Below, in pieces: positions 1,750 through 62,219 of a stretch of DNA of 64,000 bases. Position 1 is the first letter of the stretch; each line of letters opens with the position of its first letter. Source of the DNA: a phage; assembly GCA_014435945.1 (NCBI GenBank), contig GCA_014435945.1_4088.1, one strand, 5' to 3'. The notes beneath the pieces were generated by a model, which was given only the letters and a program-made list of their open reading frames with translations, was not told where the DNA came from and ran no database searches. Made by a program: the position numbers and the translations under genes.

Positions 1750-1968
1750 ATGAAATTATCTAAAATCGAAAAGAAAACTATTGATGAAGCAGTTAAGCAC
1801 GGTTATACCTTTCGTAATGATTCACATTTTACCAATTTTCAACAAGGGTATCGTACTATTAAAAAACTAATTGACAAAGGTTTATTAGTTGAAGTCAATA
1901 ACGGTAACGGTATCGAGTATCAACCAACACAGGACGCATTTTATTTTAAGAAATATAATATTATCTAA
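1750..1968 (+). CDS. small hypothetical protein (72 aa)
   Basis: ATG 1750 (codon 20 of track ORF 1693-1968) after GGGAG; upstream part of track ORF is promoter sequence. Confidence 0.6.
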   Translation: MKLSKIEKKTIDEAVKHGYTFRNDSHFTNFQQGYRTIKKLIDKGLLVEVNNGNGIEYQPTQDAFYFKKYNII

Positions 1969-1997
1969 TTGACAGTACTCAAATGTTTTAGTACTAT
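1969..1997 (+). promoter_or_regulatory. sigma70-like promoter (class C)
   Basis: TTGACA 1969-1974, 17-nt spacer, TACTAT 1992-1997; duplicate of 1693-1721. Confidence 0.6.
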
Positions 1998-2025
1998 ATG
2001 TACATACCAACACGGGGAAAACAAA

Positions 2026-2268
2026 ATGATTACTTTAGAAAAACGTATCAAAGAAACTACATCGCTGGTGGAACTGTTAACAGTACTGAAATGTAAAACA
2101 ACACCATTCAGCACGCCGGACTTTATTAATATGGTTGATGTTAATGGTCGCTATCGCATCACGGTCGAACAAGGAGCGGCGAAAGTATTCAGTACTAAAA
2201 ACACGAAGGAAGTGATCCACGCCGTTAATGTTAAAAAAGTAGTTGCCATTGATAGTAAAGTACTGTAA
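2026..2268 (+). CDS. small hypothetical protein (80 aa)
   Basis: ATG 2026 (codon 20 of track ORF 1969-2268) after GGGGAAAACAAA leader. Confidence 0.6.
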   Translation: MITLEKRIKETTSLVELLTVLKCKTTPFSTPDFINMVDVNGRYRITVEQGAAKVFSTKNTKEVIHAVNVKKVVAIDSKVL

Positions 2269-2271
2269 TAT
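2243..2271 (+). promoter_or_regulatory. candidate sigma70-like promoter
   Basis: TTGCCA 2243-2248, 17-nt spacer, TGTAATAT at 2264-2271. Confidence 0.4.
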
Positions 2272-2299
2272 AGTTTCATTAACTCAAGGAGAACATGCA

Positions 2300-2884
2300 A
2301 TGCGTAATTATACTAAATTCATCCGTACACTGTCAGAAATGGAAACCAACAAAGAGATCCTTTCAGCTTGTCGGTTAGCTGACCTGGAGATCATCGGTGC
2401 TGGTTCTTCCCGTATAGTTTTCGCTTTAAATGATCGGTTAGTGATTAAGGTCGCGAATTGTGATGCGGGTGTAGAACAAAATGAAACTGAATGTATAGTA
2501 TGGAATTTTTTAGACTATGACCGCCCTCAGTTGAAACAGTACTTTGCAAAGGTGCATATGCATTTATGCGATCCTGATAATATGTTTATCGTTATGGATC
2601 GGTTGAGTACTGCAAGCAAAGGCAGTGTGAAGCACGTAAACGCGTGCAATGAATTAAAGTACAATATTAAACGTAATGCAATCGAACGCCAGCACCGCTT
2701 TGCTGATGCACTACAACACGTTGATGATACATTATCAACACTAACGATAAGAGATATCAGAAAACAGAATATCGGCCAGGATCGTAATGGACTTATTAAA
2801 GTACTTGATTACGGTTTAACCAGCAATATCTGGAATCAGTACTATAAAAAGCGTGATGTGGCAGCAAGTAAGGTAACACGATAA
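2300..2884 (+). CDS. minimal Ser/Thr protein kinase-like protein (194 aa)
   Basis: Gly-rich loop IIGAGSSRIVF, Lys in LVIKVA, catalytic-loop-like RDIRKQN, DYG (DFG-like) 19 residues later; AAGGAG 8 nt before ATG 2300. Confidence 0.55.
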   Translation: MRNYTKFIRTLSEMETNKEILSACRLADLEIIGAGSSRIVFALNDRLVIKVANCDAGVEQNETECIVWNFLDYDRPQLKQYFAKVHMHLCDPDNMFIVMDRLSTASKGSVKHVNACNELKYNIKRNAIERQHRFADALQHVDDTLSTLTIRDIRKQNIGQDRNGLIKVLDYGLTSNIWNQYYKKRDVAASKVTR

Positions 2885-2895
2885 AAAAGATTAAA

Positions 2896-2929
2896 AAAGG
2901 GATTGACTCCGGTCAGTCCCTTTGCTATT
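2896..2929 (+). terminator. hairpin terminator, part of a duplicated intergenic module
   Basis: 12-bp stem AAAGGGATTGAC / GTCAGTCCCTTT with 4-nt loop, A-run before and T-rich tail after; conserved box follows at 2958-2980. Confidence 0.6.
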
Positions 2930-3025
2930 ATATATCCATTGAGAGATAACTCACTGACCCATAGGGTGCGGAAGTGTATCTATTATATAAGTATTCAGTA
3001 CTGAAAACTATTTGATAAAAAGTAC

Positions 3026-3086
3026 TTGCAAACTATCTCAATGAGCGTATAATGTTTTATATCGAGAGGGGGAAATGGTTCTCCCT
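3026..3086 (+). promoter_or_regulatory. sigma70-like early promoter (class B) plus leader stem-loop
   Basis: TTGCAA 3026-3031, 16-nt spacer, TATAAT 3048-3053; G-rich leader hairpin 3067-3086. Confidence 0.7.
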
Positions 3087-3108
3087 GGTACTAAAAGGAA
3101 TCAAGACG

Positions 3109-3330
3109 ATGACTACTATGACCTGCGTTCACGCTTCAAATCTTCTGAATGATGCAGCATTTAAAGCAGGTGAAGAATATCAATGCTATCGGGATGAAAA
3201 TAAAAAAGTTTTCGTCGTTGATGCTAACGGTTTCCATATTGAATTACAATCCGGCTTCACTGGTGTTGATGGTAAATCAGTATGGGGCGTTAATGATGAT
3301 AATGGTCTTTATCACTTTATCCGTAATTAA
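3109..3330 (+). CDS. small hypothetical protein (73 aa)
   Basis: ATG 3109 after AAAAGGAA; the MFYIERGKWF extension in the track ORF is translated promoter/leader. Confidence 0.65.
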   Translation: MTTMTCVHASNLLNDAAFKAGEEYQCYRDENKKVFVVDANGFHIELQSGFTGVDGKSVWGVNDDNGLYHFIRN

Positions 3331-3333
3331 GTA

Positions 3334-3392
3334 TTGACAAAGTATCTCAGTACTGTATAATAGTTTACATCAAGGGGAGAATAGTTCTCCCC
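3334..3392 (+). promoter_or_regulatory. sigma70-like early promoter (class A) plus leader stem-loop
   Basis: TTGACA 3334-3339, TGtATAAT with hexamer 3356-3361; hairpin GGGGAGAA-tag-TTCTCCCC 3374-3392. Confidence 0.75.
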
Positions 3393-3413
3393 AATACTAA
3401 AAGGAATAAAATC

Positions 3414-3821
3414 ATGACTACTACTAATCAAGCTCGGTCCATCGCCAACGATAAAAATCATGCTGCAATGGTCGCTGGTTACATTGAAGCTATGCAATTC
3501 AGTACTGTACACAATGAGAACGGCGATTACCTGGAAGATTATGAATTATCAGAGCAAGCCCATCAAGCGGCAGTGATTGCATGTTCACGTTTCCTTGCTG
3601 TACATGGTGAAGATATGGAAACAGTACAAAAACACCATAATCCTGATTATACTTATAGTCATGCAGGTCATGATCTCTTTCTTACTCGCGAAGGTCACGG
3701 CACTGGTTTTTGGGATCGTGATATCGGTCACTATGATGATATATTCACTAAGTACTGCGAAGAAATCAACGTTTGCGATCCCTATGTAGGCGATGATAAT
3801 CTAATCTATATGGGCGAATAA
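3414..3821 (+). CDS. hypothetical protein (135 aa)
   Basis: ATG 3414 after AAAAGGAA RBS. Confidence 0.7.
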   Translation: MTTTNQARSIANDKNHAAMVAGYIEAMQFSTVHNENGDYLEDYELSEQAHQAAVIACSRFLAVHGEDMETVQKHHNPDYTYSHAGHDLFLTREGHGTGFWDRDIGHYDDIFTKYCEEINVCDPYVGDDNLIYMGE

Positions 3822-3827
3822 AAGTAT

Positions 3828-3886
3828 TTGACAAAGTATATTAGTACTGTATAATAGTTTACATCAAGGGGAGAATAGTTCTCCCC
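3828..3886 (+). promoter_or_regulatory. sigma70-like early promoter (class A) plus leader stem-loop
   Basis: TTGACA 3828-3833, TATAAT 3850-3855; hairpin 3868-3886. Confidence 0.75.
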
Positions 3887-4183: not shown

Positions 4184-4371
4184 CAGTTGAAGAAGTTAAA
4201 AAAGTACTGGCAGTACTACGCTATCATAATCATTGCAAGGTGAAGAATGATCCTGATTATCTCGATTCATCCCTGGAAGAGGATACACTACAAGCAATAA
4301 GCCATATGCAAAAAATGCTTAAGCGTATGACCGAAAAGAATAGGCCGGACTATATCGGAAATAAAATTTAA
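4180..4371 (+). CDS. small hypothetical protein (63 aa)
   Basis: ATGA start/stop overlap with upstream gene. Confidence 0.55.
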   Translation: MTVEEVKKVLAVLRYHNHCKVKNDPDYLDSSLEEDTLQAISHMQKMLKRMTEKNRPDYIGNKI

Positions 4372-4378
4372 AAAGTAC

Positions 4379-4440
4379 TTGCATTGTAGTTAGATTAACG
4401 TATAATGTTTTATATCGAGAGGGGGAAATGGTTTCCCCTC
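4379..4440 (+). promoter_or_regulatory. sigma70-like early promoter (class B) plus leader stem-loop
   Basis: TTGCAT 4379-4384, 16-nt spacer, TATAAT 4401-4406; bulged G-rich hairpin 4419-4440. Confidence 0.7.
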
Positions 4441-5090: not shown

Positions 5091-5348
5091 ATGGATCAAT
5101 TCACACAATATCGGGTAAATCCTCAAGCTATGGCCTACGTAGAAGACCATAAAACGTTACCAGTACTGCAACCAGTTAAAGGCCATATCTATCGTGCAAT
5201 GTCGTGGTGTACGGCCCAGGATGGCTATAAAACCGTAGCCGTGGGTATGTATTGCGGTAATGGTGAATGGTTTGATCCAAATAATCCGGTAGCCATTGAC
5301 AGTACTGAAAAAATGAAATGGGCCGACTACATCGAAGATATTTCATAA
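5091..5348 (+). CDS. hypothetical protein (85 aa)
   Basis: ATG 5091 after AAGGGGAAA. Confidence 0.65.
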   Translation: MDQFTQYRVNPQAMAYVEDHKTLPVLQPVKGHIYRAMSWCTAQDGYKTVAVGMYCGNGEWFDPNNPVAIDSTEKMKWADYIEDIS

Positions 5349-5355
5349 AAACTAT

Positions 5356-5416
5356 TTGACAGTACTAACCAGTAATGTATAATGTTTTACATAGAGCGGG
5401 GGAATAGTTCTCCCGC
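5356..5416 (+). promoter_or_regulatory. sigma70-like early promoter plus leader stem-loop
   Basis: TTGACA 5356-5361, 16-nt spacer, TATAAT 5378-5383; hairpin GCGGGGGAA-tag-TTCTCCCGC 5396-5416. Confidence 0.7.
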
Positions 5417-5438
5417 CAATAGTTTGGAGTAAAACATT

Positions 5439-5639: not shown

Positions 5640-5654
5640 CAAAAAAGAATAAAA

Positions 5655-5688
5655 AAAGGGATTGACTCAGGTCAGTCCCTTTGCTATT
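5655..5688 (+). terminator. hairpin terminator, second copy of the duplicated intergenic module
   Basis: Same 12-bp stem as 2896-2923 with loop tcag; conserved box at 5712-5735. Confidence 0.6.
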
Positions 5689-5804
5689 ATATACGCATAG
5701 ACAAAAACTAGCCCACAGGGTGCATAAGTGTATCCAAAATATATAGTTAATAACGGTGAGTAACTATCTGCTGGTGGAGTGAAAACTATTAATAAAAAAA
5801 AGTA

Positions 5805-5833
5805 TTGACAAAGTATATCAGTACTGCAATAAT
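5805..5833 (+). promoter_or_regulatory. sigma70-like early promoter (class A variant)
   Basis: TTGACA 5805-5810, 17-nt spacer, TGcAATAAT at 5825-5833. Confidence 0.6.
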
Positions 5834-5886
5834 GTATCTCGTAGGGCGGCAATGGTGCGACGGCCCACAAAGTTAGGAGATTCAAA

Positions 5887-6219
5887 ATGACTACTTCAAT
5901 CGCTATCGTTAAAGCTTTCATCCGTACTAATGTTTCCTCTGTATTCATCGACGGCCTCGACCGTAACGTAGAATACTCAATCATTATCGCACAAACGGCA
6001 AACGGTTCTCGGTACATCCTGAATGATAGTGAAGCAAATCACTACTACTTCACTAAAGCCACTGGCTTTAAACGCATCGATGCTGATGTAGTATACGCTA
6101 AGATGAATAAGCTGGTAGACAAGATTAACGCGAAAGGTACTATCGATTTACAGTACTGGACCGAAACCGATCCAGAATATGGATCTCACCGCTACCTGAA
6201 TCCAGGTATTAAAATGTAA
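5887..6219 (+). CDS. hypothetical protein (110 aa)
   Basis: ATG 5887 after AGGAG. Confidence 0.7.
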   Translation: MTTSIAIVKAFIRTNVSSVFIDGLDRNVEYSIIIAQTANGSRYILNDSEANHYYFTKATGFKRIDADVVYAKMNKLVDKINAKGTIDLQYWTETDPEYGSHRYLNPGIKM

Positions 6220-6226
6220 AAAGTAC

Positions 6227-6289
6227 TTGCATAGTACTTAGATTCATGTATAATGTTTTACATAGAGAGGGGGAAATGGTTCTCCCTCC
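6227..6289 (+). promoter_or_regulatory. sigma70-like early promoter (class B) plus leader stem-loop
   Basis: TTGCAT 6227-6232, 16-nt spacer, TATAAT 6249-6254; G-rich hairpin about 6267-6289. Confidence 0.7.
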
Positions 6290-15847: not shown

Positions 15848-16177
15848 ATGAATAAAATTATTTTAGCTCTAACATTTATTTTATCAATGTTCTCTAATAC
15901 AGTACAGGCCGCTGATTATGAAGTATATCAATTTGATTGCAGATTACAAAACAATGATAAAATTGATATATTTTTACATAGCACAGAAATTCCGTATTTG
16001 CAAATTGAGTCCACAAAGTACATTTATTTTGGTGAGAATTCAGTACAGGAATTTTTATTCAAGCACACATCAGAAGATGTAATTGTATCATTACAATACG
16101 TTGATGCATCATTATCGTTAATGCATTTCAAGAACGCAAAAGGTTTAGTTACAGTGCTTAAATGCACAAGGGTATAA
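15848..16177 (+). CDS. predicted secreted/periplasmic protein (109 aa)
   Basis: Signal-peptide-like N-terminus MNKIILALTFILSMFSNTVQA-AD; AAGGAA RBS. Confidence 0.6.
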   Translation: MNKIILALTFILSMFSNTVQAADYEVYQFDCRLQNNDKIDIFLHSTEIPYLQIESTKYIYFGENSVQEFLFKHTSEDVIVSLQYVDASLSLMHFKNAKGLVTVLKCTRV

Positions 16178-16178
16178 T

Positions 16179-16739
16179 ATGAATGATATTGAGTTATTGG
16201 TACATAAGATTTGCACAATATCGTTAGTGCTGAACAATGCGAATACAGTACAGAGTTCCCTTTTAAGAATTAATAAAGTTGGGAGTAGTTTATATTTGGA
16301 AGTAAAAGCTGGTTTTGCAGGTCAGTACAATGATAAAATCAAAGAAGAAGTTAAGGGAAGTGAAGATGCTTTCATTGAGGTTTGTGCAACAGTTGGTTCA
16401 AATCCAATTTCAGTATCACCGTTAATGCGAAATGAAAATTCAGAATTTAATTCCATTTTTGAAGGTTATTTGTGGTATAATGCTGGAGATGATTATTTTA
16501 TATATCAGAATTCCAAAACGGATTACAGTGAAGAAGGTATAAAATTCATTGATCCTTACAATGAAGCAGAAGTATTTCAGACATCCCTAATATACAATGC
16601 AAATCAAATGAAGTATCTTATGTTGTTTAGTACAATGCATTTGAATCCATTGAAAGATAATTTAAAATTTTTCATTCGTTTAGAATTAGTTGATATTGCT
16701 TATGATCTTTTAATGCAAGGATACAGTTATGAAGTATAA
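16179..16739 (+). CDS. F2 paralog protein
   Basis: F2 module AEVFQTSLIYN; C-terminus DLLMQGYSYEV shared with 16816-17322. Confidence 0.6.
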   Translation: MNDIELLVHKICTISLVLNNANTVQSSLLRINKVGSSLYLEVKAGFAGQYNDKIKEEVKGSEDAFIEVCATVGSNPISVSPLMRNENSEFNSIFEGYLWYNAGDDYFIYQNSKTDYSEEGIKFIDPYNEAEVFQTSLIYNANQMKYLMLFSTMHLNPLKDNLKFFIRLELVDIAYDLLMQGYSYEV

Positions 16740-16809
16740 AATGCTTTATACAAAAGATATGATTTATGTTGAATTAGAAGGCAATGACGATGTATCCATC
16801 AATAGGTAA
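16729..16809 (+). pseudogene. truncated remnant of an MKYKMLYT-type F2 gene
   Basis: 26-codon ORF MKYKMLYTKDMIYVELEGNDDVSINR matches N-termini of 17312 and 17644 genes then stops. Confidence 0.5.
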
Positions 16810-16815
16810 TAATAT

Positions 16816-17322
16816 ATGAATGAGATAGAATTATTAGCACACAAGATTAGTACAGTAATGCTTATGCTCAAGAATAATCATTCTATGCATAAGTACATTT
16901 TTATAGGTGATTTACGCATAGAAGATAGATATGATAAATTATCGTTTATGTTTAAAGATGAAAGTAATGCAAAAGTTTGTTTTGCAGCATTTGCCCAAGG
17001 CAATCCAGAACAAGCATCTCCTGTTATATACGAAAATAGTGAAGGGTATTTGTGGGTCAACACAAACGATTATTTCTTTTATGTTTTGAAACAAGATGAT
17101 GAAGTAGAAGCACGAATTGATTTAATTGATATTAGTACAGATTGTAGTGCTGAATTATTTCAGAAATCGTTATTATACAGTCCTCGTCAAATACATTATC
17201 TAAAGTTATTCAGTTCATTGTACGCGAATCCTTTAATTAAGGGTTTTAAATTTTATATCAAAATTCCGCACCTTTCAAACGTTTATGATTTATTAATGCA
17301 AGGATATAGTTATGAAGTATAA
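16816..17322 (+). CDS. F2 paralog protein
   Basis: F2 module AELFQKSLLYS; paralog of 16179-16739. Confidence 0.6.
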   Translation: MNEIELLAHKISTVMLMLKNNHSMHKYIFIGDLRIEDRYDKLSFMFKDESNAKVCFAAFAQGNPEQASPVIYENSEGYLWVNTNDYFFYVLKQDDEVEARIDLIDISTDCSAELFQKSLLYSPRQIHYLKLFSSLYANPLIKGFKFYIKIPHLSNVYDLLMQGYSYEV

Positions 17323-39388: not shown

Positions 39389-39802
39389 ATGAAACTGTAT
39401 CATGCGAGTACTGTAAAAATTGATAACTTTTATATCCCGTATGGTGGCCTTCATATGGGAGGTAAACACAGTGCTTTAGAAGCTGCATTACGCAAACTGA
39501 GAAGCCCACTAAACGTCGTTGACGCTGATACAGTATACTTGCATACATTAGAAGTTGATGTTGATAACGTGCTTCTATGGACGGATATGGGCAGTGATGA
39601 TGAATGGCGTGGAGTGATTGAGTACTGCGAAATTAACGGCTATGATGCAGTTCAGTACCAAAACGATTACGAACCAGATACAGTTCCTAGCTATATGATT
39701 TGGGATACGTCTAAGGTTCGCATTATTGAAGTTGATGCGATGCATATGGATGAAGCTGAAATGATCATCGAAGATTTCCTTGATGAATATGAAGGTGTAT
39801 AA
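39389..39802 (+). CDS. hypothetical protein (137 aa), not F2
   Basis: N-terminus MKLYHASTVKIDNFYIPYGG; distinct from neighbours. Confidence 0.55.
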   Translation: MKLYHASTVKIDNFYIPYGGLHMGGKHSALEAALRKLRSPLNVVDADTVYLHTLEVDVDNVLLWTDMGSDDEWRGVIEYCEINGYDAVQYQNDYEPDTVPSYMIWDTSKVRIIEVDAMHMDEAEMIIEDFLDEYEGV

Positions 39803-54000: not shown

Positions 54001-54264
54001 ATGAATATCCAAGATAGATTGCAATTATTGCACACACTTGAAGAAGCTGCTTTTGAACTTGTTAATAAAATTGCACAAGAACTCCCAAAAGGAACCAAAG
54101 TTCGTGTTCGTGAAATGGATTATTTAACGGGAAAAATTGATGAAAAAGTTCTAACAGTGATCAAAGTAACATACTATGAATCAGAGTTATCAATTCAATG
54201 TAATTCAGATAATGGTTACGTTTCCTACTATGGTACAGATGTAGATATAGAGGTAATAAAATGA
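54001..54264 (+). CDS. F4 small paralog protein
   Basis: Motif ELPKGTKVRVRE; ATG 54001 right after upstream stop (track 53956). Confidence 0.55.
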   Translation: MNIQDRLQLLHTLEEAAFELVNKIAQELPKGTKVRVREMDYLTGKIDEKVLTVIKVTYYESELSIQCNSDNGYVSYYGTDVDIEVIK

Positions 54265-55403
54265 CCCTTTTACAAATATATGAAGATTTAATGCACTTAT
54301 GTAATACCCGTGAGGCTTTCTTTTATGTGGATCATAAAAGTCCTGCTGGTGGAACATATCGTGTATTCAGTTATCGTCTAGCATCATATACCGATTTCAT
54401 GCAACCCAATGCATTAGAAACCCGTGGTTCTATGTGGGAAATTGATGAAGACGGTGATATGATTCGTTGTGCTGCTCGTACTATGAAAAAGTTCTTCAAT
54501 GCTTACGAAAATCCTGCTACAATGTTCCCTGCTGATACCTCATTCGATGACATTGCAGTAGTGATGCCTAAGTTGGATGGTTCAGTAATCAGTACTTACC
54601 GTGATAATGATGGTGTAATTCGTTGTAAATCACATACTGCATTGTATTCAGATCATGCGATTAACAGTACTCGTCTTCTCAATGAGAACCAAAATTTGTA
54701 TCAATACATTGACGAAGCAGACCGTTTGGGCTATACTGTTAATCTGGAGTATACAAGTCCAGAGTACCGTATTGTATTACCATACCAGGTTGAACAATTA
54801 TTTGTACTAAACGTTCGCCATCGCAAGAGTGGTGAACTATTATGTGGTTCTGCATTACGTAATAAGTTCCCATGCCTTGCACAGTACAGTACTAACATGA
54901 CAGGTAAAGATATTCATTACACTTTCCCTGCTCGTGCTACATTCAAAGAAAGTGTTGAAGAAGTTAAGAAAATGCTTGACATTGAAGGTTTTGTGTGCAT
55001 CCTAAATAATGGTACAATGTGCAAAATCAAAACCGACTGGTATTGTTCTTTGCATTTAACGAAAGACAGTATTATAATCGATTCCCATTTATATGAAGCT
55101 GTATTAAATGGTTCGAGTGATGATTTAAAACAGTTGTTCAGTACTGACGAATATGCTACCCAAAAGATATTAAGAATGGAACAACTAGTCTTTTCGTGCT
55201 ATAATGCTTTACAAGATGAAGTTGAAAGCTTCGTCAAGGAACACAAGCACTTGGAGCGAAAGGAATTCGCTAAGAAGGTTCAGGAGTGTTTAACTAATGA
55301 ACTGAATCGTCAGGGCTTGGCCTTTGCAATGTACAACAATAAGAAAGTCGATTACAAAGAGACTCTTATTAAGTACATGAAAATTGTACTAAAGGATTTT
55401 TAG
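54261..55403 (+). CDS. rnlA: RNA ligase 1 (T4 RnlA-like)
   Basis: Collinear with T4 Rnl1: CNTREAFFYVDH, GGTYRVFSYRLASY, ETRGSMWE, KxDGS lysine motif MPKLDGSVISTY, KIKTDWYCSLH; 380 aa. Confidence 0.85.
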   Translation: MTLLQIYEDLMHLCNTREAFFYVDHKSPAGGTYRVFSYRLASYTDFMQPNALETRGSMWEIDEDGDMIRCAARTMKKFFNAYENPATMFPADTSFDDIAVVMPKLDGSVISTYRDNDGVIRCKSHTALYSDHAINSTRLLNENQNLYQYIDEADRLGYTVNLEYTSPEYRIVLPYQVEQLFVLNVRHRKSGELLCGSALRNKFPCLAQYSTNMTGKDIHYTFPARATFKESVEEVKKMLDIEGFVCILNNGTMCKIKTDWYCSLHLTKDSIIIDSHLYEAVLNGSSDDLKQLFSTDEYATQKILRMEQLVFSCYNALQDEVESFVKEHKHLERKEFAKKVQECLTNELNRQGLAFAMYNNKKVDYKETLIKYMKIVLKDF

Positions 55404-56225: not shown

Positions 56226-57158
56226 ATGCCAACTATCACACTAACAGTTGGATTGCCAGGGTGTGGTAAAACTACATGGGCAGTGCAAGAGATTAAAAAA
56301 GCCAAATCCAAGACTATCAACATCAACCGTGATGATATTCGTGAATCTATGGCTGGGTCACATGATGCTTACAAATTCAACGATGCTAATGAGCAGTACG
56401 TAACTAATTTACAGTTCAGTGCAGCAAATTCAGCCGCAGAGAATGGTTGGAACATCATCATATCCGATACGAACCTTAAACAACATTTCCGTAATCTATG
56501 GAAAGTATGGGCTACAGATAATGGTTATGATTACAAAGAAAAGAATTTCTATGATGATTTTGTACCTAATGAAGACCGTGGTGCAGATGTTCATGAATTC
56601 TTTAAGATTAAAGAGTTCGTAAAACTTTGTAAGAAATATAACCTCCAGCGTGAGCGTTCAGTACAAGATAATATCATTGACACTATGGCAGATACGTACT
56701 ATTATAGTAAGGCATTACACATTGGTTACTATGGTAATTCACGCGAAGCTGCTATTATCGTTGATATCGACGGTACTCTTGCTCATAAATGGGGACGTAA
56801 CCCGTTCGATGAAAGTACTGTTCTCCAGGACACACCAGACGAAGAAGTTATTTTGTCTATTATCGCAGAAGCAGTTTTTCATAAACGCAAGATTATCGTC
56901 ATGAGTGGGCGTACTGAAGGGTGTCGTGCTGATACCGAACAGTGGCTTAAGAATTGGGGTATTCCTTACGATGCATTGTTTATGCGAGACATTGATGATA
57001 AACGTCCTGATGATGTTGTCAAATTCGACCTGTACATGAAAAATGTGGTTGATCATTACGATGTTAAAAAGGTATATGATGACCGCAATCAAGTTGTGTT
57101 CATGTGGCGTAAGTTACTTGGGTTGAAAGTTTTTCAAGTGGCTGAAGGAAATTTCTAA
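56226..57158 (+). CDS. pseT: polynucleotide 5'-kinase/3'-phosphatase (T4 Pnk-like)
   Basis: P-loop GLPGCGKTT, NINRDD, ISDTN, phosphatase DIDGTLA and DDR motifs; collinear with T4 Pnk over full length. Confidence 0.88.
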   Translation: MPTITLTVGLPGCGKTTWAVQEIKKAKSKTININRDDIRESMAGSHDAYKFNDANEQYVTNLQFSAANSAAENGWNIIISDTNLKQHFRNLWKVWATDNGYDYKEKNFYDDFVPNEDRGADVHEFFKIKEFVKLCKKYNLQRERSVQDNIIDTMADTYYYSKALHIGYYGNSREAAIIVDIDGTLAHKWGRNPFDESTVLQDTPDEEVILSIIAEAVFHKRKIIVMSGRTEGCRADTEQWLKNWGIPYDALFMRDIDDKRPDDVVKFDLYMKNVVDHYDVKKVYDDRNQVVFMWRKLLGLKVFQVAEGNF

Positions 57159-60300: not shown

Positions 60301-60551
60301 TGTTCAACACCGACTATTCACATTTGCGATATCTTATGTCTTTGGCTGATGATTTTATTAATGATTTGAAGCCGAAGTATATTGGACAAGAAGTATCTTT
60401 GATAAACTCAAGGGGTTATGGGAAGTACATTATCGCTGATATGTATATTAGCGGTGGTGAATGGCGTTTCAAAGTTAATACGTATCTTAAAGATGGTTCT
60501 TTTGCAGGTACACAAGTTACAAAACACACTAACATTATATGGTTGAAATAA
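60300..60551 (+). CDS. F4 small paralog protein
   Basis: Motif KPKYIGQEVSLIN; TAATG overlap (track 60225). Confidence 0.55.
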   Translation: MFNTDYSHLRYLMSLADDFINDLKPKYIGQEVSLINSRGYGKYIIADMYISGGEWRFKVNTYLKDGSFAGTQVTKHTNIIWLK

Positions 60552-60553
60552 TA

Positions 60554-61297
60554 ATGAAACATTTTTTGGAAATTACAGTACCGGATGATAAAGATTTATA
60601 TATCGTTGGTGATTTACACGGCAATGGAAAACTGTGGGATGCTACCAAGAAAGAATTTGGTATCACCAATAATGACTATGTTTTTTGTGTAGGTGATGTT
60701 ATTGACCGTGGTGACCAGAATTCCAAACTACTATTTGAATTCCTTTTCGGTGAAAACCGTTTTATGATTGCTGGGAACCACGAGATCATGTGTGTTGATT
60801 CTGAAACTCACCGTGACTGGCATCACTGTTGGGTACAAAATGGTGGAGATAAGTTCATTGATGAAGTTGGTGAGACAGGTATACAGTTCTTCCGTCAGTA
60901 CTTAAAGGATCTCCCTATGATTATCCAAATCAATCACCGAGGATTGAAGATTGGTCTAGTTCATGCTGGTGTTCCATTGGAATATACCACATGGGAACGT
61001 TTCGTTAGTGGGACAAAATCACTTAGTGCTGATATAATTGAGAAGTGCTTGTGGGACCGTGATACATTCGACTACTGCAAGAAAAATAACACATATTACG
61101 TCCCTAGACTTGATGGCATCCATTGCGTCTTTAGTGGTCATACCGCAGTATCCGACCCACTCATCTACGGTAATCGTATCTGGATTGATAGTCAGTTTTT
61201 AACTGGTGATTTGACTCTTGCAACTCCCCAAAGTGGCGGGATGAGATACTTACGTAAAGAAAAAGATGAGTATTCATTTAACCGCTTCAAAAGGTAA
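60554..61297 (+). CDS. Ser/Thr protein phosphatase (calcineurin-like metallophosphoesterase)
   Basis: GDLHG, GDVIDRGD and GNHE metal-binding motifs in canonical order; start 60554 or 60539. Confidence 0.8.
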   Translation: MKHFLEITVPDDKDLYIVGDLHGNGKLWDATKKEFGITNNDYVFCVGDVIDRGDQNSKLLFEFLFGENRFMIAGNHEIMCVDSETHRDWHHCWVQNGGDKFIDEVGETGIQFFRQYLKDLPMIIQINHRGLKIGLVHAGVPLEYTTWERFVSGTKSLSADIIEKCLWDRDTFDYCKKNNTYYVPRLDGIHCVFSGHTAVSDPLIYGNRIWIDSQFLTGDLTLATPQSGGMRYLRKEKDEYSFNRFKR

Positions 61298-61581: not shown

Positions 61582-61809
61582 ATGAAAGTAATTCAAGTTA
61601 TGGTAGAAAAATACCAAACTGAAGATGGCCGTATTTTTGATTCAGCTAAACAAGCTGAACATCATGAACGTATTATTTCTGGTGCACGTAAAGTATGCCC
61701 TACATGTAATGGAACACAACAAGTACCATCTGAAGACTATCGCAGTTATTATGCTTGTCCACATTGTGATGGTAAAGGGTTTGTAGAAAAACAAGAGGTA
61801 TGGAAATGA
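61582..61809 (+). CDS. small zinc-finger protein (DnaJ-type CxxCxGxG)
   Basis: CPTCNGTQ and CPHCDGKG motifs; AAGGAA RBS. Confidence 0.6.
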   Translation: MKVIQVMVEKYQTEDGRIFDSAKQAEHHERIISGARKVCPTCNGTQQVPSEDYRSYYACPHCDGKGFVEKQEVWK

Positions 61810-62219
61810 AATTATATTGCTTAACAAACATGTACTGCCAAGGTGTACAAGCTGGAATTCAAGCATTTCATGCTGGCGTAAAACTAATTAAAGAATATGA
61901 AGGTACTGCTTTCAGTACTATTATTGATGAATGGTATTATGACCACGAAACTATTGTAGTACTAAATGCTGGCGGTCATGATAAGTTAAATTCTTATTAT
62001 GATGACCTTTGTAAGCAGGGAAAAGTGCCATTCGCTAAATTCAATGAAGCCGGATTAAATGATGCAACTACATGTGTAGCAGTACTGTGTACATCTGAAA
62101 TGGTTGAAGACATGTCTGTTATGCGTATGAATCTTCCTGCTGGGGATCAACTAATGCAAGTAAAATATGGTGCATTGTTTAACACATTAAAAGCAATTAG
62201 TACAATGAGGACTGTTTGA
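61806..62219 (+). CDS. hypothetical protein (137 aa)
   Basis: ATGA overlap at 61806 (track 61800). Confidence 0.55.
   Translation: MKLYCLTNMYCQGVQAGIQAFHAGVKLIKEYEGTAFSTIIDEWYYDHETIVVLNAGGHDKLNSYYDDLCKQGKVPFAKFNEAGLNDATTCVAVLCTSEMVEDMSVMRMNLPAGDQLMQVKYGALFNTLKAISTMRTV

Follow-up and report, generated by a model that had tools for sequence, protein, structure and literature searches.

The stretch of phage DNA analysed here, referred to below as the window, comprises 64,000 nucleotides of contig GCA_014435945.1_4088.1 and encodes, at positions 2300 to 2884 of its plus strand, a 194-amino-acid (194-aa) protein that is very likely a minimal kinase, an assignment well supported at the level of the predicted fold and of the catalytic residues. 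For the protein as a whole we lean towards a model in which it is an autonomous, minimal protein-kinase-like phosphotransferase that is catalytically competent and serves host takeover or the countering of bacterial defences early in infection. The open reading frame (ORF), which begins with the ATG at 2300 and whose stop codon ends at 2884, is a genuine conserved gene of an Asteriusvirus-type Escherichia coli jumbo phage, with orthologues in phages Sharanji (gp063, WNN14351.1), ph0011 (WAE76904.1) and fEgEco12 (g044). A Shine-Dalgarno sequence, AAGGAG, can be read at 2286–2291, 8 nucleotides (nt) 5′ of the ATG. An upstream TTG at 2243 was considered as the start and rejected, because every homologue starts at the same Met (MRNYTKF/MR..).

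The catalytic elements of a kinase follow one another along the protein, and their conservation was counted in 240 domain instances, cut from all retrieved family members and aligned to the family hidden Markov model (HMM). The Gly-rich loop G33-A-G35-S36-S37-R38-I-V-F41 (2396–2422; all coordinates in this paragraph are on the plus strand) forms a β1-turn-β2 element in which G35, S36 and R38 are near-invariant (G35 in 239 domains, R38 in 238), with R38 standing at the position of the third Gly of GxGxxG. K50 in LVIKVA, the β3 “VAIK” lysine (2447–2449), is present in 240 of 240 domains, and it is followed by a family-specific αC motif, G57-x-x-Q60-N61-x-x-E64 (2468–2491), every residue of which is kept in at least 237 domains (G57 in 237, Q60 in 239, N61 and E64 in 238 each); E64 is presumed to be the partner of K50. 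The catalytic loop R151-D152-I-R-K-Q-N157-I-G159 (2750–2776, with RDIRKQN at 2750–2770) lacks the His of HRD and retains D152 in 238 domains, the other two having Glu, and G159 in 237. The DFG-equivalent metal-binding motif D170-Y-G172 (2807–2815) keeps its aspartate in all 240 domains, its glycine in 238 and a Tyr or Phe at the middle position in 219. It lies 18 residues past D152, a spacing equal to that of PKA, in which the catalytic D166 and the DFG D184 are likewise 18 residues apart. Only 24 residues follow the DYG aspartate, and these include a short C-terminal helix with conserved aromatics (residues 175–182, 2822–2845; Y182 in 217 domains).

The family thus retains the Lys–Glu pair, the catalytic Asp and the metal-binding Asp, whereas subdomains VIII–XI are wholly absent, and it has invariant features of its own in the Arg of the Gly-rich loop and in the QN located one turn ahead of the αC Glu. 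These features can be condensed into the signature GxGSSR...V[IL]K[VL]A...GxxQNxxE...D-x4-[SHNTQ]-x-G...D[YF]G[LF]...Y. The pattern of conserved residues speaks for an active enzyme and not for a pseudokinase, and does not alone show that the substrate is a protein. The original prediction for this gene, made from the DNA sequence, had named GAGSSRIVF, LVIKVA, RDIRKQN and DYG, with correct spacing, as the marks of a kinase; all four are present and conserved, with the 18-residue distance between D152 and D170.

Searches against sequence and profile collections place the product in PHROG 4301, a family of unknown function (E=9.5e-41, residues 2–188 of 194), and a search of NCBIfam with the product gave no match. 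A profile built from 14 homologues and compared with the sequences of the PDB returned 258 matches at E≤1, nearly all of them eukaryotic-type protein kinases, with MKK4 (1.5e-4) and MKK7 (5e-4) as the best. In these alignments the Gly-rich loop and the catalytic-loop/DFG region are in register, the segment around D152 and D170 matching RDIKPSN...DFG of MKK4, and in the alignment with MKK7 the β3 lysine is about 4 residues out of register. With PADLOC, the family gave weak, sub-threshold matches to PD-T4-6 only, which we take to be a kinase-type defence protein.

An AlphaFold2 (AF2) model calculated from 14 close homologues was discarded, having a predicted local distance difference test (pLDDT) score of 60 and of less than 50 in the C-terminal half, and the family was therefore enlarged for modelling. 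The model from 108 family sequences reached a pLDDT of 92.3 and a predicted template modelling (pTM) score of 0.89. It shows two N-terminal helices followed by β1 (residues 30–35), β2 (38–42), β3 (47–52) and a long αC (55–73), then β5 (96–100) and two helices, 109–120 and 130–145, equivalent to αD and αE, after which come the catalytic loop, β7 (158–160), β8 (166–168), the DYG motif and the closing helix 175–182. The bilobal protein-kinase-like fold, with an N-lobe of β-sheet plus αC and a C-lobe catalytic core, is therefore present in the model; subdomains I–III (Gly-rich loop, β3 Lys and αC Glu) can be assigned, and the closing helix occupies the place of the activation segment with its APE motif, of αF and of the GHI subdomain, all of which are missing. 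In the BFVD collection many phage proteins of about 140–230 aa have the same fold as the model, and T7-type kinases, with TM scores of 0.51–0.55 (E 2e-6 to 3e-5), are among its better structural matches, compared with 0.40–0.46 for cellular kinases. Structure prediction, which the original prediction had proposed as a check on the kinase assignment, has come out kinase-like, and the description of a minimal kinase-like protein without most of its C-lobe is borne out by the 24 residues after D170 and the one short helix that they form in the model.

Several observations weigh against this reading. Pkinase (PF00069) is the top Pfam match of the product and remains below threshold, with 16.1 bits against a cut-off of 31.7 (E=0.0077), the related PK_Tyr_Ser-Thr model (PF07714) being likewise sub-threshold at 14.8 bits against 23.1, and just 8 of 108 family members reach Pkinase at E<0.1. 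Within the catalytic loop, only the Rak2-like subgroup has Asn at position 157, where Ser, His, Thr or Gln stands elsewhere in the family, and the Lys found two residues after the catalytic Asp in Ser/Thr kinases is not conserved, this position being variable across the family. To these has to be added the precedent of the effector kinase SteC, which is inactive when cut just after its DFG-like motif and needs the αF region and phosphorylation of S379 (PMC13395416); a kinase that ends 24 residues past its DYG might therefore have to associate with a partner or with itself.

The family to which the protein belongs is, as far as the searches indicate, large, invisible to Pfam and largely restricted to phages. 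An exhaustive HMM search retrieved 2,076 family representatives (at 50% identity) with E≤1e-3, and a word-indexed search found at least 1,738 clusters (at 90% identity) with E≤1e-5; apart from one GNAT fusion, these 1,738 clusters contain no Pfam domain, and they carry no informative family name in any source, nearly all members being called “hypothetical protein” or left unnamed. In an annotated phage collection orthologues with 27–99% identity occur in 60 phage records, all of them Rak2-like jumbo phages (Asteriusvirus, RaK2/K64-1/Muenster, Munch/7t3, Erwinia and Yersinia phages, CBB), whose hosts are Escherichia, Salmonella, Klebsiella, Erwinia, Yersinia, Pectobacterium and Xanthomonas. The more divergent members come from metagenomic contigs that resemble jumbo phages and reach 346 kb. 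When 185,579 representative prokaryotic genomes were scanned with sequence patterns, no member of the Rak2 subgroup was found, an absence that is only indicative given the narrow patterns used, and the broad family was matched, again with narrow patterns, on 7 contigs only, all from metagenome-assembled genomes and mostly shorter than 10 kb.

Many of the relatives consist of 2–4 full tandem copies of the domain in one polypeptide (P0021, P0023, P0027, P0032, P0033 and P0044), for instance 3 copies in the 693 aa of P0021 and 4 copies in the 923 aa of P0023, with the catalytic residues intact in each copy. In others the domain is joined to a GNAT acetyltransferase (P0186) or forms part of much longer proteins, 2,130 and 3,248 aa in length (P0121 and P0130). 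The label “putative protein kinase” is already attached to orthologues in the GenBank records of K64-1, Munch, Muenster, ph0011, fEgEco12 and Turkey3/5, and one paper mentions an orthologue as a kinase of unknown function; in the literature searched, no earlier account was found of minimal kinases that make up a very large, Pfam-invisible and largely phage-restricted family and include tandem and fused forms.

Megablast with positions 1800–3400 recovered 40 phage records, of which 35 cover at least 80% of the query; 37 are 90–99% and 3 are 80–90% identical, and all are Asteriusvirus-type jumbo phages of E. coli or Salmonella with genomes of 310–386 kb (PBECO4, 121Q, G17, Sharanji, ph0011, fEgEco12). 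In annotated relatives the window equals one long plus-strand gene block of mostly small hypothetical genes. Comparison with these relatives places the kinase-like gene close to the end of the genome of an E. coli jumbo phage: the orthologue of fEgEco12 (16,161–16,745) lies within an experimentally supported direct terminal repeat of 20,993 bp and that of vB_Ec-M-J (16,690–17,271) within a terminal repeat of 21,525 bp, and positions 1 to about 7,100 of the window would by homology belong to a direct terminal repeat of about 21 kb. Phage records that hold both terminal repeats carry the gene twice, and because of its location in the repeat it would be present twice in each packaged genome.

Most of the small genes in the first ~6.5 kb of the window are preceded by promoter cassettes of 60–85 nt, in which a TTGACA-N16-17-TATAAT, perfect or nearly so, stands ahead of a conserved leader hairpin (GAGGGG...CCCCTC). 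The cassettes form repeat families, one at 194–269, 465–540, 3317–3392 and 3811–3886, another at 3004–3087, 4357–4440, 5334–5417 and 6205–6288, and a further one at 1683–1753 and 1959–2029. The first 6 kb contain six sigma70 promoters that match the consensus perfectly (12/12). In the whole 64 kb, near-consensus sites with at most 1 mismatch in 12 number 24 on the plus strand, 8 of them in the first 6 kb, and 2 on the minus strand, and since they are both strand-biased and spread over the window they suggest that host RNA polymerase (RNAP) transcribes the entire plus-strand block. An equivalent region of short genes rich in RpoD promoters and reaching into the terminal repeat has been proposed as the early host-takeover region of phage CBB (PMC5259590). 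With the kinase-like gene located in the terminal repeat among sigma70 cassettes, immediate-early, host-RNAP-dependent expression is likely. The literature search for transcriptomes of Rak2-like phages returned none for Asteriusvirus and only promoter predictions for CBB and RNA sequencing (RNA-seq) for the more distant PA5oct. When the original prediction called the kinase gene early and the phosphatase gene later, this was right for their positions in the window; as expression times the two words could not be read from the sequence, early expression of the kinase-like gene being plausible from the terminal repeat and the cassettes.

From the gene, its conservation, its fold and catalytic residues, and its genomic position by homology, we infer the following for activity, substrates, timing and biological role. 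The protein would comprise a two-helix N-terminal extension, a full kinase N-lobe (β1–3 with the GxGSSR loop and K50, αC with QNxxE, and β4–5) and of the C-lobe only the catalytic core, namely αD, αE, the catalytic loop, β7–β8, DYG and one short closing helix. ATP-Mg would bind between the lobes, held by the K50–E64 pair, N157 and D170, with D152 acting as the catalytic base. Lacking an activation segment and the αF–αI substrate-docking helices, the enzyme would probably either be permanently open with little selectivity, or depend on a partner or a second copy of itself to complete it. Situated behind host-type sigma70 promoter cassettes, it would most likely be made in the first minutes of infection, and it would most likely phosphorylate host proteins, possibly also phage proteins, for host takeover or anti-defence.

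A different possibility is that this kinase-fold enzyme acts on something other than a protein, such as a ribose hydroxyl of RNA or tRNA, a nucleotide second messenger used in bacterial defence, an envelope sugar or lipid, or a small molecule resembling an antibiotic. We consider this unlikely, since the sequence-level matches (MKK4/7, PKC, PknB-like kinases, SteC and Pfam Pkinase) are all protein kinases, with no aminoglycoside, choline or clear RIO/Bud32-type kinase among the matches listed, and since the active truncated kinases compared here, T7K (the kinase gp0.7 of phage T7), OspG/NleH and SteC, all act on proteins. Small-molecule kinases of this fold normally have an extra C-terminal helical subdomain for substrate binding, and this too is absent here. 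The short C-lobe also bears on whether the monomer is complete, and the protein might be active only as a homo-oligomer or with a host or phage partner that supplies a C-lobe surface, or might serve mainly as an ATP-dependent binder or inhibitor and less through phosphotransfer. Along with the inactivity of truncated SteC, the requirement of OspG for a partner, E2~ubiquitin (PMC13395416), speaks for such a reading, as do the relatives with 2–4 tandem copies, whose intact catalytic residues in each copy suggest domains acting side by side. We nevertheless think it quite improbable, as all catalytic residues are strictly conserved, which argues for catalysis rather than mere binding, as AF2 predicts a compact and confident monomer with its own closing helix, and as no conserved neighbouring gene was found, a ParE-like gene preceding the homologue on the P0007 contig and a different 80-aa ORF preceding the gene in the window.

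The original prediction had further coupled the kinase to a phosphatase of the PPP family at 60554–61297, in a timed system in which host proteins are modified by the kinase early on and the phosphatase later undoes or restrains that modification. The phosphatase itself is confirmed. Its translation contains GDLHG, GDVIDRGD and GNHE, and the plus-strand gene (alternative ATG at 60539) encodes a homologue of lambda phosphatase (NinI/PrpA-like) that matches Pfam Metallophos (PF00149) with 42.8 bits against a cut-off of 21.5 (1.1e-10), PHROG 246, “NinI-like Ser/Thr phosphatase”, at 2.8e-65, and lambda phosphatase of PDB entry 1G5B over its full length (residues 3–229) at 3.6e-16. In favour of the coupling, the two genes are genuine and are shared by the Rak2-like phages sampled, among them Asteriusvirus, Klebsiella RCIP0023 and CBB, the phosphatase is a real homologue of the lambda enzyme, and lambda phosphatase strips the autophosphorylation of T7K in vitro (PMC13645617), so that it could in principle reset a phage kinase. 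The distribution and the setting of the two genes, however, speak against it. Phage records with a member of the phosphatase family number 1,245, T5-like, rV5-like, lambdoid and Vibrio phages among them, as against 60 with the kinase-like gene, and therefore the phosphatase is a common phage gene that usually comes without this kinase, at least 1,185 of its records lacking it, while within the Rak2-like group co-occurrence is inseparable from shared ancestry. In the window the phosphatase lies 58 kb downstream of the kinase-like gene, on the same strand and in the same block of sigma70 promoters, with near-consensus sites at 56677 and 59744 and no sign of lateness; in CBB, where the two genes are not syntenic, the kinase lies at ~300 kb, ~255 kb from the phosphatase (~45 kb). 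Since the phage genome holds a second, T7K-type kinase, the pairing would moreover be ambiguous, and a timed kinase–phosphatase pair seems to us very improbable.

With the lambdoid NinI genes the phosphatase gene shares about 27% identity, and it adjoins genes for an RNA ligase, Pnk and Pth2, whereas NinI of lambda lies in the nin region. These neighbours, named after the annotation of ph0011, are an RnlA-type RNA ligase (54261–55403), a Pnk-like polynucleotide kinase/phosphatase (56226–57158) and a Pth2-type peptidyl-tRNA hydrolase (61800–62219), genes of types that are typically early in T4-like phages. As an observation in its own right, such flanking genes raise the possibility that the metallophosphatase has a role in RNA end-healing rather than on proteins.

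Of the elements next to the kinase-like gene, the plus-strand cassette at 1959–2029, which belongs to repeat family D6 and contains TTGACA-17-TACTAT at 1969–1997, is probably the promoter of a two-gene unit formed by an 80-codon ORF (2026–2268) and the kinase-like gene. A weaker promoter-like site, TTGCCA-17-TAATAT (9/12), is found directly 5′ of the kinase-like gene at 2243–2271 on the same strand. Right after its stop codon follows a terminator-like 12-bp hairpin (2896–2923, plus strand), which overlaps a promoter-like TTGACT-17-TATTAT at 2903–2931. The hairpin is part of a 60-nt element (2883–2942) that recurs with 88% identity at 5642–5701 and whose stem reads AAAGGGATTGACTC.GGTCAGTCCCTTT, the -35-like TTGACT lying within the stem and TATTAT after it; at both locations the element is a joint terminator-like and promoter-like module at a gene boundary. 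On a related jumbo-phage contig (L009), a ParE-like toxin domain (PF24732) is encoded at 5745–5996 directly upstream of the kinase homologue P0007, and the ORF at 2026–2268 differs from that gene in length. Elsewhere in the plus-strand block, a putative ADP-ribosyltransferase annotated in ph0011 (OP557969.1, 55359–55772) corresponds to about 39389–39802 of the window, within a run of adjacent ORFs of similar size (~140–200 aa) between 35.5 and 42 kb, and it is another candidate host-modifying enzyme.

The gene at 2300–2884 would add to T7K a second kinase, smaller still and of separate evolutionary origin, in phages with E. coli K-12 as a host, as is the case for Sharanji, and through it the question of whether other phages use T7K-like mass phosphorylation with other kinases becomes directly testable. 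It provides an anchor, in a cultured phage and tractable in E. coli, for a very large set of unannotated metagenomic proteins outside Pfam, and a natural test of how much of the kinase C-lobe is the minimum needed for catalysis. Should the protein prove inactive, or its substrate not be a protein, many “putative protein kinase” labels in GenBank would need correcting. Only tentatively can all these strands be drawn into one joint reading, which as a whole we find rather doubtful, namely that the family comprises the smallest self-contained kinases (~200 residues), restricted to phages and acting in the first minutes of infection as promiscuous kinases of host proteins that disarm defences in parallel to the T7K type, with tandem arrays working cooperatively or as oligomers, and that it may have been a source of SteC-like effector kinase domains.

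Among kinases that have likewise been reduced or altered, OspG and NleH are minimal kinases without subdomains VIII–XI (PMC12756638). OspG of Shigella and NleH1/2 of enteropathogenic and enterohaemorrhagic E. coli (EPEC/EHEC) have about 190–300 aa and neither an activation segment nor αF–αI, an architecture that is the same as that of the AF2 model, and they are delivered into a foreign cell whose proteins they modify, as the phage protein would do; no sequence homology of the kinase-like family to OspG or NleH was detected. A broad family profile (A3) found as its best solved structure SteC (PDB 8JBI, chain D, E=8.5e-4), the match being borderline and confined to the N-lobe (profile positions 29–88), where it covers the helix before β1, the Gly-rich loop, the β3 Lys and the start of αC. 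SteC is a minimal kinase too, but keeps an activation segment with S379 and αF, both needed for its activity, and the match hints at an evolutionary link between the phage mini-kinases and this effector of a type III secretion system (T3SS). Clearly RIO- or Bud32-type chains were not found among the matches listed in the PDB profile searches; these kinases retain additional helices in the C-lobe and serve the cell in ribosome maturation and in tRNA t6A synthesis.

A further comparison is with T7K, a hyperactive and promiscuous kinase that disarms bacterial defences via mass phosphorylation, whose DFG-equivalent, DPV, comprises residues 213–215, and which has distant homologues in the jumbo phages G17 and Munch (PMC13645617). 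That the kinase-like gene is the published jumbo-phage homologue of T7K was considered and rejected, as the published gene corresponds to Sharanji gp144 and the two profiles are barely similar. Sharanji gp144 (WNN14432.1, 224 aa) is of the T7K type, with HSSN and ITDP motifs and an end ~20 residues past its DFG-equivalent. It is encoded at 66182–66856 of OR545507.1 (L004:26183–26857, minus strand), ~46 kb from gp063, and by tblastn no such gene is present in the 64-kb window. BLASTP of the kinase-like product against gp144 gave E=4.6, and HHalign of profile A3 against an alignment of 11 T7K sequences gave P/E=0.017 over 81 N-lobe columns only. The motifs differ throughout, with GxGSSR, QNxxE, D-x4-N and DYG in the family against GNGHFS, EDSGAAY, D-x-H-x-x-N and DPV in T7K. 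Because of the short HHalign match and these differences, the kinase-like family and T7K are, on this evidence, separate branches of the kinase fold, and Asteriusvirus phages by the same comparisons encode two unrelated minimal kinases together with a lambda-type phosphatase.

The two kinases nonetheless have much in common. Both are phage-encoded, T7K being expressed early from host-RNAP promoters as would likely hold for the kinase-like gene, and in both the DFG-equivalent lies about 25–30 residues from the end of the domain, with no canonical activation segment or GHI subdomain, the kinase domain of T7K being taken as its N-terminal part of roughly 243 residues with DPV near the end. Members of the T7K family in Autographiviridae have a C-terminal shut-off (DNA-binding) domain, and the 2300–2884 product has none. 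T7K is highly active despite its truncation, so that activity of the truncated kinase-like protein is plausible, and the analogy also suggests that the missing docking lobe may accompany low selectivity. Either protein may plausibly serve host takeover or anti-defence. The original prediction, which had likened the gene to T7 gp0.7 in its manner of action, is supported as regards architecture (TM 0.51–0.55), and the HHalign result and the motifs speak against kinship with gp0.7; the part played by the kinase-like protein would accordingly be functionally analogous to that of gp0.7 and evolutionarily separate from it.

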